Source of the DNA: a virus
Direction: 5' to 3' (one strand)
DNA length: 64,000 nucleotides
IMG/VR virus record: IMGVR_UViG_3300043446_004500
Coordinates: 32,001-96,000 of that record
Positions 31,712-47,259 of this stretch are shown here, in pieces (the first letter of the stretch is position 1; every line of letters starts with the position of its first letter). The notes beneath the pieces are model-generated. The model saw only the letters and a program-made list of their open reading frames with translations, was not told the origin of the DNA and did not search any database. The position numbers and the translations under genes are program-made.

Positions 31712-32215
31712 ATGAATAATATTTCAAAAATGTTTAAGAAATATCGAAAAGGATGCTCTTACTTTATTGAAACGGGCACATATAAAGGATATGGAATTGA
31801 CGCGGCCAAAGATGTTGGATTTGAAAAATACTATAGTGCAGAATATTTAACTTCTCTTTATAAGGAGTGTTTGGAAAAATTCAAAGATCATGATGATATA
31901 TTCCTCTATAATGGATCTTCTGAAGATTGTTTAGAATCATTTCTTGATGAAGTTGATAAAAGAAGTCTATTTTGGTTAGATGCTCACGACAGCTTTGGTA
32001 CTGGTGGTGGAGTTCCTACATTTGAAGAACTTAAAATAATTAAAGAACATCCAATCAAAAATCATACTCTTTTGATTGATGATATTCCTCTTTATTTTGG
32101 AGATGGTCAAGAATTAAAGGAACGAATTCTGGAAATAAATACAAAATACAAATTTAAAACACACGATCCAGATACAAGACCAGATTACATTTTGGTTGCG
32201 TATATTGATGAATGA
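31712..32215 (+). CDS. Class I SAM-methyltransferase-like protein
   Basis: FIETGTYKG, FWLDAH, LIDD. Confidence 0.7.
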   Translation: MNNISKMFKKYRKGCSYFIETGTYKGYGIDAAKDVGFEKYYSAEYLTSLYKECLEKFKDHDDIFLYNGSSEDCLESFLDEVDKRSLFWLDAHDSFGTGGGVPTFEELKIIKEHPIKNHTLLIDDIPLYFGDGQELKERILEINTKYKFKTHDPDTRPDYILVAYIDE

Positions 32216-43677: not shown

Positions 43678-43737
43678 TTTAAAGGAGGGGTAAAACTCTC
43701 CTTTTTTAATAAATACATTTGCTCATGCAAAAGAGAA

Positions 43738-44439
43738 ATGCAAATAGATCTTCATAACTTTTTTAGATATTATGATGAAAAGAATCCCAAACACGTTGCG
43801 GCAGTAGAGCAACTTGAAAAGGATTTGCTCTTGAAAGCACAAGGTCTGATGCAAGATGATGCAAATTGGGTAAGAATCTATAGAACAAAACCAGAAGCAC
43901 CAAAATCAAATATTCTTGCGGTTCCATTTTACCCACAAACAGACAACTACAGGGATGCAAATAGAACCTGCAATTCTTCTTCCTGTGCAATGTGCCTTGA
44001 GTATTTTAAACCAGGAACTTTAAAAGGAGCAAAAGGCGATGATGCCTATGTTCAAAAAGTTTTTGCAATTGGTGACTCAACTGATCACTTGGTTCAAACC
44101 CGTGTGCTGGCGTCTTATGATGTTCAGTCATCTTTTAGTTACAGCCTCTCTTTTGATGATCTTGATAATGAGTTATCCAACAATAGACCTGTTGTCATTG
44201 GTATTTTACATAGGGGTCCTATATCTGCTCCTACTGGTGGGCACATGATTGTAGTTATTGGCAAAACTCCAGCAGGAGATTATGTTGTAAATGATCCTTA
44301 TGGTTCTTTAAATGATGGATATACTGGTGCGGTAATTAATGGTAAAGGTGTAATATACAAGAAATCTGAACTAGTTCGTAGATGGACTCCAGATGGTCCT
44401 AAATCTGGTTGGGGAAGAATTTTCCGAACAAAAAAGTAG
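43738..44439 (+). CDS. C39-like cysteine peptidase, putative lysin (zero-frame product)
   Basis: Q...TCNSSSCAM, GGHMIVVIG, VNDPYG; AATAAATA late promoter at 43708. Confidence 0.8.
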   Translation: MQIDLHNFFRYYDEKNPKHVAAVEQLEKDLLLKAQGLMQDDANWVRIYRTKPEAPKSNILAVPFYPQTDNYRDANRTCNSSSCAMCLEYFKPGTLKGAKGDDAYVQKVFAIGDSTDHLVQTRVLASYDVQSSFSYSLSFDDLDNELSNNRPVVIGILHRGPISAPTGGHMIVVIGKTPAGDYVVNDPYGSLNDGYTGAVINGKGVIYKKSELVRRWTPDGPKSGWGRIFRTKK

Positions 44440-44502
44440 AATCAACATTGCAAGGCAGTATCCCTCAATGTGGTGTTGATTTAATCAAACAATTTGAGGG
44501 AT
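44430..44502 (+). promoter_or_regulatory. Programmed -1 ribosomal frameshift signal (A_AAA_AAG plus H-type pseudoknot)
   Basis: Slippery heptamer 44430-44436 in frame just before TAG; stem1 44440-44452/44469-44481; stem2 44460-44468/44494-44502. Confidence 0.8.
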
Positions 44503-44918
44503 GTCACTTGAATGCTTATCCTGATCCTTTAACTGGAGGATTGCCTATTACAATAGGGTGGGGAAGCACTAAAGATTTTGATGGATCTTTCTTTAAGATG
44601 GGAAGAAAAATAACACAACAGTATGCAGATAAACTGTTAATTTATAGTTTAAAAGTAAGATTTATTCCTTTATTAGAAAAAATACCTTATTGGAATGAAA
44701 TGAATGAAAATCAACAAGGAGCACTTATTTCTTTTGCTTATAATCTTGGTGCTAGTTTTTACGGGTCTCCCAATTTTAATAGTATAAGTAAAGTTCTTAA
44801 ATATAAGCAATGGAATAAAGTTCCTGATACTTTGTATCTTTATAGGAATCCTGGAAGTAAAGTTGAAGAAGGATTGATGAAAAGAAGAAAAACTGAGGGA
44901 CAACTTTGGATGAATTAA
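44436..44918 (+). CDS. GH24 lysozyme domain, probably translated as a -1 frameshift extension of the peptidase
   Basis: LIKQFEG...AYPDP...TIGWGST; QQGALISFAYNLG; GLMKRRKTE; no ATG before the catalytic Glu. Confidence 0.88.
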   Translation, partial: VESTLQGSIPQCGVDLIKQFEGCHLNAYPDPLTGGLPITIGWGSTKDFDGSFFKMGRKITQQYADKLLIYSLKVRFIPLLEKIPYWNEMNENQQGALISFAYNLGASFYGSPNFNSISKVLKYKQWNKVPDTLYLYRNPGSKVEEGLMKRRKTEGQLWMN

Positions 44919-45921: not shown

Positions 45922-47259
45922 ATGACTGCTACACTTTCACAACAACGACAATCAAATACTTGGGAACAATTTTGCGAATGGGTCACTTCCACTAATAATC
46001 GTCTATATATCGGAAATTTTGGAACCTTGATGATTCCAACGCTGCTTGCTGCAACAATGTGCTTCATCATTGCCTTCATTGCTGCACCTCCTGTAGACAT
46101 TGACGGTATTCGTGAACCAGTTGCTGGTTCACTTATGTATGGAAACAACATCATTTCAGGTGCTGTAGTTCCTTCAAGCAACGCCATTGGTCTTCACTTC
46201 TATCCAATCTGGGAAGCAAATTCACTTGATGAATGGCTTTATAATGGTGGTCCTTACCAACTGGTAGTGTTCCACTTCCTTATCGGTGTATTCTCTTATA
46301 TGGGTCGTGAGTGGGAACTTTCCTATCGTCTTGGTATGCGTCCTTGGATCTTCGTTGCTTACAGTGCTCCTGTTGCTGCTGCAACTGCCGTATTCCTGGT
46401 TTATCCTTTCGGTCAAGGTTCTTTCTCTGATGGTATGCCTCTGGGTATCTCTGGTACGTTCAACTACATGCTTGTGTTTCAGGCAGAACATAACATTCTG
46501 ATGCACCCTTTCCATATGCTTGGAGTTGCTGGTGTCTTCGGTGGATCATTGTTCAGTGCTATGCACGGTTCTCTGGTGACTTCTTCCCTTATTCGTGAAA
46601 CGACTGAAGATATCTCTCAGAACTATGGTTATAAGTTTGGTCAAGAAGAAGAAACCTATAACATTGTTGCTGCTCATGGATACTTTGGTCGTCTGATCTT
46701 CCAATATGCTTCCTTCAACAACTCTCGTTCACTTCACTTCTTCCTTGCTGCTTGGCCTGTAGTTGGTATCTGGTTTGCTGCTCTTGGTGTTTCCACGATG
46801 GCATTCAATTTGAATGGATTCAACTTTAATCAATCACTTCTGTCTTCTGATGGTCGTGTGATTAATACTTGGGCTGACATTCTGAATCGTGCCAATCTCG
46901 GATTCGAGGTGATGCACGAAAGGAACGCTAGATTTGTTGGTGTTCTTGCCTAGTAATAGGCATTAGTAAAATCGGGTTAAACGGGGAAACTCTCTATGAG
47001 ACAATCCCGTACCAAGTCAGAAAGGGTTTAAGTTTTCTGAAAGGTCTAACGACTAGGTAGTGAGTCCCAACAATAATCTACCCACGAATGCCCGACTCCT
47101 TAATAAACATAAGGATGAAGAGATAGTCTGAACTTACTGGTGACAGTAAGAAGTAAAGAATAAAGAGTCTTTACGATAACAAAATTGCACAACTTCCCAC
47201 TTGATCTTGCGGCAGCAGAAGTAACACCAGTTGCTCTTACTGCTCCTACTATTGGTTGA
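45922..47259 (+). CDS. psbA: Photosystem II D1, join(45922..46929,47188..47259), 359 aa
   Basis: D1 sequence up to HERNA; exon 2 encodes [23 protein letters not shown]. Confidence 0.97.
46930..47187 (+). mobile_element. Group I intron (258 nt, no ORF)
   Basis: Exon ends in U, intron ends in G; IGS GGTGTTCTT pairs with AGGAACGCT; core elements AAACGGGGAA, AATCCCGT, AACGACTA, AAGAGATAGTC. Confidence 0.93.

Follow-up and report, generated by a model that had tools for sequence, protein, structure and literature searches.

A conserved slippery heptamer and hairpin point to frameshift fusion of a peptidase and a lysozyme in cyanophage lysin genes

Introduction

What precedents exist for a ribosome that draws two proteins from one message by slipping back a single base? 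In Escherichia coli dnaX, the heptamer A_AAA_AAG, a downstream stem-loop and a single tRNA-Lys(UUU) give rise to two products, tau and gamma, from one message (PMC5009743), and in the IS3 family of insertion sequences (IS911, IS3, IS150) the same heptamer, followed by a 3' hairpin or pseudoknot, fuses overlapping -1 open reading frames (ORFs) in the step from orfA to orfAB (PMC4066793). The subject of this paper is a lysin locus that carries a signal of the same kind. It lies in a stretch of 64,000 nucleotides, hereafter the window, which spans positions 32,001 to 96,000 of IMG/VR virus record IMGVR_UViG_3300043446_004500; there, a gene for a C39-like peptidase ends in A_AAA_AAG with a stop codon adjoining it, and a GH24 lysozyme is encoded behind it in the -1 frame. 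Our comparison of homologous loci makes it probable, at roughly 85%, that the lysin gene ends in a programmed -1 ribosomal frameshift of the dnaX or IS3 kind, and just as probable that the gene pair gives a short lysin of 233 and a long one of 393 amino acids.

The locus resembles dnaX in its identical heptamer, in a stem-loop a few nucleotides away and in a presumed dependence on tRNA-Lys(UUU), which is here a matter of host tRNA content only. However, while the dnaX shift truncates the protein to gamma, the shift proposed here would add a whole catalytic domain. The 0-frame stop adjoins the heptamer, unlike in dnaX, the proven upstream Shine-Dalgarno (SD) stimulator of dnaX is matched here by an SD-like motif that is not specific, and the gene encodes a phage lysin rather than a polymerase subunit. 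The polarity of dnaX is seen only in a few in-frame relatives, the subgroup of phage ACG-2014f and locus L262. With the IS3-family elements, the locus shares the heptamer, a 3' structure and the joining of two domains by a -1 shift, but there is no mobile element, the products are predicted cell-wall hydrolases and the overlap is minimal, as the stop adjoins the heptamer.

Phages themselves offer further parallels. The tail assembly chaperone G/GT and T7 gene 10A/10B have a conserved -1 frameshift in a late gene, which yields a short and a C-terminally extended form in a fixed ratio. These are structural or assembly proteins, they mostly use other heptamers (e.g. G_GGA_AAG), and to our knowledge none of these frameshifts adds an enzymatic domain. 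The present locus is comparable in that a probably late phage gene would yield a short and an extended form, but it encodes a lysin, to which an enzymatic domain would be added. Endolysins in two forms are known as well: Lys170, CTP1L and Ms6 LysA have an internal start in the same frame, and their short form is the C-terminal part. Here, in contrast, the N-terminal part would make up the short form, and recoding would be needed for the long one. Finally, in-frame fusions in the Kyanoviridae (ACG-2014f gp198, PHROG 3617) and a reversed fusion in phage S-CREM1 contain the same domains, N-terminal module and linker region, but the fusions of ACG-2014f and S-CREM1 are single, ordinary ORFs that can do without recoding. 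No description of frameshifting in a lysin of a cyanophage, or of any tailed phage, was found in full-text literature searches, which included the 2016 recoding review (PMC5009743); as far as this literature goes, a recoding event in a tailed-phage lysin would here be described for the first time. We propose that a known mechanism serves a new use here, one that is conserved widely and seems not to have been described; the comparison of loci supports this proposal well.

Results

A slippery heptamer conserved in phase

An earlier note, made from the letters of the window alone, had proposed that a -1 frameshift at A_AAA_AAG fuses the peptidase to a start-less lysozyme, to yield proteins of 233 and 393 amino acids. 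Its reading of the locus, with the peptidase end, the in-phase heptamer, the lysozyme in the -1 frame, both stems and an upstream GGGGAAG, was confirmed in every coordinate (Table 1). By sequence reading and ORF listing, the last codons of the peptidase are ACA AAA AAG TAG. From G44436, the -1 frame reads VESTLQGSIPQCGVDLIKQFEG and stays open to the end of the lysozyme; joined to the peptidase, this region gives the predicted long product. The lysozyme has no ATG before its catalytic Glu, as the note had observed, and the only start-like codons are TTG 44409 and TTG 44448.

Table 1. Features of the peptidase-lysozyme junction, in positions of the window
Feature	Coordinates	Strand	Basis
C39-like peptidase, 0-frame ORF, short product (233 amino acids)	43738..44439	+	ORF listing, Pfam PF13529
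Slippery heptamer A_AAA_AAG in the phase of the peptidase frame	44430..44436	+	Sequence, comparison of junctions
0-frame stop TAG adjoining the heptamer	44437..44439	+	Sequence
Stem 1 hairpin, arms 44440-44452 / 44469-44481	44440..44481	+	Folding, covariation
Candidate pseudoknot stem 2, loop 44460-44468 with 44494-44502 (Phe-Glu-Gly codons)	44460..44502	+	Duplex energy
-1-frame linker and GH24 lysozyme (160 amino acids)	44436..44918	+	Pfam PF00959, PHROG 3617
Catalytic Glu codon in the motif K-Q-F-E-G	44496..44498	+	Alignment with relatives

Homologous loci were collected in two scans of IMG/VR, one with a peptidase alignment and one with the ACG-2014f fusion as query, whose matches were confirmed by tblastn (461 and 355, overlapping). 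The best 80 loci of each scan, the window and six GenBank loci make about 167 loci in all, among which we counted unique junction sequences; where single loci have to be told apart, they carry an L number. The lysozyme lies in the -1 frame in 59 of the 68 first-survey loci that have both domains. In blastn searches of GenBank phages, the locus was confined to Synechococcus myoviruses of the Kyanoviridae.

An in-phase A_AAA_AAG is present in 54 of 73 unique -1-frame junctions, and its phase is correct in all 54, so that the heptamer is conserved across homologous loci, a check that the earlier note had named. The stop follows directly in 42 junctions (TAG in 38, TAA in 3, TGA in 1), 24 of which have no start before the catalytic Glu, and one codon later in 12, of which 8 have an overlapping ATG or GTG. 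Altogether, the stretch of lysozyme frame ahead of the catalytic Glu is free of ATG, GTG and TTG in 27 of the 54 heptamer junctions. This frame usually opens just 10 nucleotides before the 0-frame stop, most relatives having a -1-frame stop two codons ahead of the heptamer. The remaining 19 junctions lack the heptamer: 18 have an overlapping start, and the sole one without, L004 from phage DSL-LC03, has a separate lysozyme gene with its own ATG. Thus, the heptamer goes with the need to change frame, as its place is taken by ATGA-type coupling or, in that one junction, by a separate lysozyme gene. In-frame fusions account for a further 16 unique junctions.

The codon before AAA AAG is GCA, GTA, ACA, GAA or ATA, with A as third base in 58 of 58 cases; the amino acid before Lys-Lys thereby varies between A, V, T, E and I, despite the fixed NNA. 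Given X-K-K and the codon usage of these genes, NNA AAA AAG has a chance of about 6.5% per lineage. Synonymous sites at the heptamer are, to judge from this pattern, constrained, and recurrence in dozens of diverged homologous loci puts the arrangement as a whole far outside what chance could produce.

Cultured phages differ in the architecture of the locus, and informatively so. In S-PM2, the junction reads GCA AAA AAG TAA, the lysozyme follows in the -1 frame, and up to the catalytic Glu this frame contains neither ATG nor GTG nor TTG; the separately sequenced record of S-PM2d has the same junction. The annotated S-PM2 'putative lysin', p157, is a truncated fragment of 72 amino acids, called in this form because no start could be found. 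S-SRM01 reads GCA AAA AAG CAA TGA, again with the lysozyme in the -1 frame, and its stop is overlapped by an ATG. In ACG-2014f, peptidase and lysozyme share a single in-frame ORF of 405 amino acids (gp198), S-CREM1 has the lysozyme first and the peptidase second, and in DSL-LC02 and DSL-LC03 the two are separate genes. Peptidases that stand alone or at the C-terminus stop at GWGRIF(D/T), without an X-K-K tail. As a side observation, the peptidase of L042 ends GAT GTA AAA TAA with no lysozyme downstream, which looks like the remnant of an X-K-K tail after loss of the lysozyme.

A hairpin downstream of the heptamer

Stem 1 of the window comprises 13 base pairs, three of them G:U; its conserved core of 9 base pairs (44443-44451 / 44470-44478) begins 6 nucleotides after the heptamer, the canonical spacing. 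Folded alone, stem 1 reaches -14.9 kcal/mol (z = -3.45), and none of 200 dinucleotide shuffles was as stable. A stem of 8-14 base pairs is found in all 31 unique stop-adjacent heptamer junctions examined; its distance from the heptamer is 2-8 nucleotides in 30 junctions and 14 nucleotides in the remaining one. The arms of these stems fall into at least 4-5 unrelated sequence types, among them AUCAACAYCACA / UGUGGUGUUGAU, the type of the window, GCCAACUAA / UUAGUUGGC, AGCUCUACUYC / GGAGUAGAGCU, the type of S-PM2, and AAUCCACCCCA / UGGGGUGGAUU, and stems of different types are also shifted relative to the protein alignment. The hairpin has been formed anew more than once, each time at its old place behind the heptamer.

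Selection on the structure is supported by two comparisons. In the 57 nucleotides before L-I-K-x-F-E-G, the mean z is -4.35 in stop-adjacent heptamer loci vs -1.15 in heptamer-less ones, and in 31 of 31 junctions the native sequence surpasses synonymous recodings of the -1 frame in stability (mean z -2.8; p <= 0.01 in 18). Covariation, which the earlier note had proposed as a check, is seen in part. Among 18 distinct sequences of the window's type, 93.6% of cells in the main helix of stem 1 are paired and 4 of its pairs show two-sided changes, a level reached by 0-2 of 500 shuffles; RNAalifold independently predicts the 9-bp core with 3 compensatory pairs. Stems 1 and 2 taken together have 92% of cells paired, vs 37-46% with a slid partner. 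However, two-sided changes above shuffled controls are absent from hairpin types 2 and 3, and stem 2 shows none. The stems of types 2 and 3 are 93-94% paired; they are conserved but too uniform for covariation within the type, and the informative signal is the replacement of arms between types. Taken together, the comparison of sequences indicates that the RNA stem is under selection.

A candidate pseudoknot in one subgroup

In the window, the hairpin loop AUCCCUCA can pair with the Phe-Glu-Gly codons UGAGGGAU to form stem 2, with 9 perfect base pairs and a loop-to-downstream duplex of -16.2 kcal/mol (p = 0.006 vs shuffled loops). Such pairing is stronger than that of shuffled loops in 14 of 33 unique junctions, 13 of the window's type and the borderline L038 (p = 0.048). 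Two of the 13, L078 and L082, have stem 2 lengthened to 13-14 base pairs (-21 and -24 kcal/mol) and a shorter stem 1. Within the window's subgroup, 88% of stem 2 cells are paired, with no two-sided change among the 18 distinct sequences; the codons that contain its two arms, Ile-Pro-Gln and Phe-Glu-Gly, are constrained. A nested fold of a longer stretch favours stem 2, as is to be expected if both stems form a pseudoknot, which a folder of nested structures cannot draw. In the other hairpin types, pairing of the loop with downstream sequence is no better than for shuffled loops. Thus, of the H-type pseudoknot claimed by the earlier note, both stems exist and stem 2 is kept in the subgroup, but it lacks two-sided changes and is absent from other types. 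For the window's subgroup, the sequences leave the odds of a pseudoknot about even; as a general feature of the element we rejected it, as the pairing is confined to this subgroup.

The same note had pointed to GGGGAAG at 44411-44417, 12 nucleotides upstream of the heptamer, as an SD-like stimulator. The motif is present, but it is encoded by conserved Trp-Gly-Arg codons and occurs equally in relatives that have no heptamer and no need of a frameshift. Being forced by its codons and not specific to frameshift loci, it provides no evidence for stimulation, and we did not count it as such.

The fusion as an ordinary protein in relatives

An A7 run (L058, L261) or small indels put the two domains into one frame in some near relatives, and these in-frame relatives encode the same linker as the -1 frame of the frameshift-type loci. 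One of them, L058, a natural A7 variant with an in-frame ORF of 395 amino acids and the same hairpin, served as query for a protein search; with E <= 1e-10 and a protein length of 217-692 amino acids as limits, it gave 3490 hits. The best 120 of the 3490 contain both Pfam domains, mostly at 99-100% query coverage, or are reversed fusions; by count of junctions, 92 of these 120 have the order peptidase-lysozyme, with natural in-frame ORFs of 390-410 amino acids. PHROG 3617, with 405 positions, is matched by the peptidase at 1-235 and by the lysozyme at 243-404. The fusion is thus, on the sequence record, evidently a real protein that occurs as an ordinary ORF in relatives. L058/L257 and L261 represent two independent A7 versions, in both of which the hairpin is kept and the former TAG survives as G-TAG; they may be either natural fixations or homopolymer assembly errors.

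The AlphaFold model of L058 (mean predicted local distance difference test score 83.8) begins with a small module of helices, followed by a papain-like and a GH24 domain, and has a disordered linker exactly at the junction. The GH24 domain has the fold of GH24 endolysins (target-normalised TM-score of 0.85 to 9kbq), and the first domain matches the C39-like peptidase 3erv and the Nostoc phytochelatin-synthase-like protein Alr0975; these matches came from the fold search, as a sequence search of solved structures with the peptidase returned nothing meaningful.

The N-terminal module comprises about 50 residues, is helical and follows the pattern I-D-L-H-N-F-F-x-Y-Y-D-E ... H-V-x-A-V-x-x-L-E ... 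W-x-x-I-Y-R, for which Pfam has no match. It is encoded at 43738-43890 in the window, at 2267-2420 in L004 and at 2340-2500 in L005. The module heads the peptidase and, in phages with separate genes (DSL-LC02, DSL-LC03), also the lysozyme; the copy on the DSL-LC03 lysozyme is 50% identical to that of the peptidase (E = 8e-19). Its presence on this separate lysozyme suggests that the lysozyme needs the module in cis, and the module may be the reason why the lysozyme stays fused elsewhere. In eight loci (L034, L035, L041, L053, L055, L059, L071, L081), the lysozyme ORF overlaps the peptidase stop by ATGA and carries a different N-terminal extension of about 45 residues (M-x-I-K-F-I-D-A-V-K ... 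P-H-Q-N-D-A-W ... Y-R-N-Q-K). BLASTP of the peptidase module against this extension (L034) gave no alignment, and we therefore do not claim homology between the two. A similar-looking leader is found in L063, L069 and L072-L080, on a downstream gene without a GH24 hit.

A smaller set of in-frame fusions, the ACG-2014f subgroup (L006, L239-L241) and L262, has an in-phase A_AAA_AAG of its own in AAA AAA GTC TGA, followed, one codon on, by a stop in the -1 frame. In ACG-2014f, a GGAGGG/CCCUCC hairpin lies 5 nucleotides downstream, and L262 retains a type-3 hairpin. In these loci, a -1 shift would therefore yield the peptidase alone, the polarity of dnaX. A broader in-frame clade (L244-L256) lacks the heptamer.

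Host tRNA content

The psbA gene of the window (45922-46953) is closest to that of a freshwater Cyanobium genome (91%), followed by filamentous freshwater cyanobacteria; the host is assigned here by this best match, and the sampled genomes may not include the true one. The Cyanobium genome has 41 tRNA matches with a single tRNA-Lys, of anticodon UUU, and among 31 genomes of its family Lys-UUU is found in 30 and Lys-CUU additionally in only 2. None of the nine phage tRNAs in the window is a tRNA-Lys. In E. coli, it is the sole tRNA-Lys, which pairs weakly with AAG, that makes A_AAA_AAG highly shift-prone (PMC5009743); the single tRNA-Lys(UUU) of the sampled hosts would fit frameshifting at the phage junction.

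Among cultured relatives, the reservoir phage S-SRM01 is nearest at the lysin locus. Together with the freshwater psbA matches, this relatedness makes the phage probably a freshwater or estuarine rather than an open-ocean one. A psbA copy 89% identical to that of the window lies on contig L113, binned as Rubrivivax sp., probably through a binning error or because the contig is itself from a phage.

Discussion

How would the two forms arise? Most ribosomes would stop at TAG 44437 and release the short protein, composed of the N-terminal module and the papain-like peptidase. A fraction would slip back one base with the Lys tRNAs on A_AAA_AAG, favoured by the weak pairing of the host's single tRNA-Lys(UUU) with AAG, by a slowly decoded stop codon next in line and by the hairpin, whose stable core begins 6 nucleotides downstream, and possibly also by a pseudoknot of the hairpin loop with the Phe-Glu-Gly codons. 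After the slip, ribosomes would decode K-K-V-E-S-T... and go on to the end of the GH24 lysozyme; the resulting peptidase-lysozyme would combine two activities that cleave peptidoglycan. The core of the earlier note is strongly supported by the conservation of heptamer, phase and stop, by the start-less lysozymes, by the retention of the hairpin and by the in-frame fusions. The signal and its phase, the missing independent start in many relatives, selection on the stem and the fusion ORF in relatives can all be read from the compared sequences. Slippage itself, its efficiency and the importance of the ratio of the two forms for lysis are what we infer from them; a late transcript and a set ratio that meters muramidase activity, both proposed in the earlier note, may be imagined along the same lines.

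Several findings weigh against this interpretation. The window itself has TTG 44409 and TTG 44448 in the lysozyme frame, which are possible starts in principle. The S-SRM01-type sub-class (8 unique junctions) combines the heptamer with an ATG or GTG overlapping the stop and with weak hairpins, which shows that a possible independent start does not preclude retention of the heptamer. The window stem, with its G:U pairs, is weaker than the stems of relatives and, taken alone, not significant in the synonymous-recoding test (z = -1.1, p = 0.15), and two-sided changes in hairpin types 2 and 3 do not rise above controls.

Could the lysozyme instead be made on its own, by a start or a re-start after the TAG at a nearby codon (one of the two TTGs in the window, non-canonical codons elsewhere), with heptamer and hairpin serving coupling or mRNA stability? 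The window's TTGs and the S-SRM01-type loci would allow it, and the heptamer-less relatives clearly use coupling of the ATGA type. However, neither TTG, which the earlier note had named as starts that would speak against frameshifting, is conserved: the -1 frame is mostly closed two codons before the heptamer, and 44448, which is inside stem 1 and without an SD, is TCA or CCA in most relatives. The 27 junctions without any start-like codon, S-PM2 included, cannot be accommodated in this way, and the conservation of NNA AAA AAG would be left unexplained, making independent initiation improbable. Readthrough of the stop codon need not be considered, as the lysozyme lies outside the 0 frame.

Addition of one A by RNA polymerase in the A6 run, so that some of the mRNAs carry A7, would likewise encode the in-frame fusion, exactly as the natural variants L058 and L261 do in their DNA, and would yield the same protein as a -1 ribosomal shift, as for Thermus dnaX (PMC5009743). 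Polymerase slippage, though, needs no fixed phase, no G at position 7, no adjacent stop and no selected hairpin 5-8 nucleotides downstream, and the sampled hosts mostly have the single tRNA-Lys that favours slippage of the ribosome. Bacterial polymerase slippage is, moreover, efficient in runs of about 9 or more, and A6 falls short of this; we consider it quite improbable here. Scarcely credible is that a homopolymer assembly error or a recent mutation has split a fusion gene whose lysozyme half is no longer expressed. The break does lie at a homopolymer, and in-frame fusions exist in close homologues, as the earlier note had foreseen for such a case, but independent assemblies show the A6 arrangement at 54 unique junctions, and so do two separately sequenced S-PM2 records; on this number, sequencing error was rejected. 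Furthermore, the lysozyme ORF is intact, with 60-75% amino-acid identity and its catalytic motif kept, and it is the only GH24 gene in the record.

Returning to the programmed frameshift, the opposite polarities seen among relatives invite a doubtful and quite tentative extension, namely that the peptidase-lysozyme locus of T4-like cyanophages is an evolutionary toggle selected for both forms, in which frameshifting makes the long form in most lineages and the short form in the ACG-2014f subgroup and L262. If this were true, the ratio of forms, set by RNA structure and perhaps by the translation state of the host, would serve to time lysis in phages without the r genes of T4.

The predicted element is conserved across a large part of the Kyanoviridae, which are among the most abundant viruses of aquatic picocyanobacteria, and includes the model phage S-PM2. 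It would correct standing mis-annotations, both of S-PM2 p157 and of S-SRM01 and other phages, where the locus is split into two 'endolysins', and supply annotation pipelines with a rule for this peptidase-lysozyme family. Its hairpin, pseudoknot, in-frame and coupled variants form a natural series in which the origin, swapping and loss of frameshift signals can be studied. For cyanobacterial ribosomes, for which we know of few recoding examples, it provides a testable -1 frameshift signal.

Coding parts and genomic neighbourhood

Pfam assigns Peptidase_C39_2 (PF13529) to the first ORF with an E value of 1.1e-12 (49.2 bits vs a cut-off of 24) and Phage_lysozyme (PF00959, GH24) to the second with 1.9e-20 (73.9 bits vs 22.3). 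The peptidase thus consists of the N-terminal module of about 50 residues followed by a papain-like C39_2 cysteine peptidase domain, in which Cys78, Cys83, His158, His169 and Asp186 are invariant in the alignment; its catalytic residues and its specificity for peptidoglycan are predictions. In 44 fusion proteins, the (K/Q)FEG motif has an invariant Glu, and the catalytic Glu of the window occupies the same position. The virus record in which this single GH24 gene occurs has 153.7 kb and is about 73% complete.

Neighbouring genes are hli, a peroxiredoxin gene, an SNase-like gene and an intron-bearing psbA. About 22 nucleotides 5' of the peptidase ATG, AATAAATA at 43708-43715 resembles the T4-type late promoter TATAAATA, although a consensus scan for promoters did not report it. 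It is preceded by a terminator-like hairpin (AGGAGGG ... CTCTCCT, then a T-run), which follows the stop codon of the peroxiredoxin gene; the two together lie within 43683-43715.

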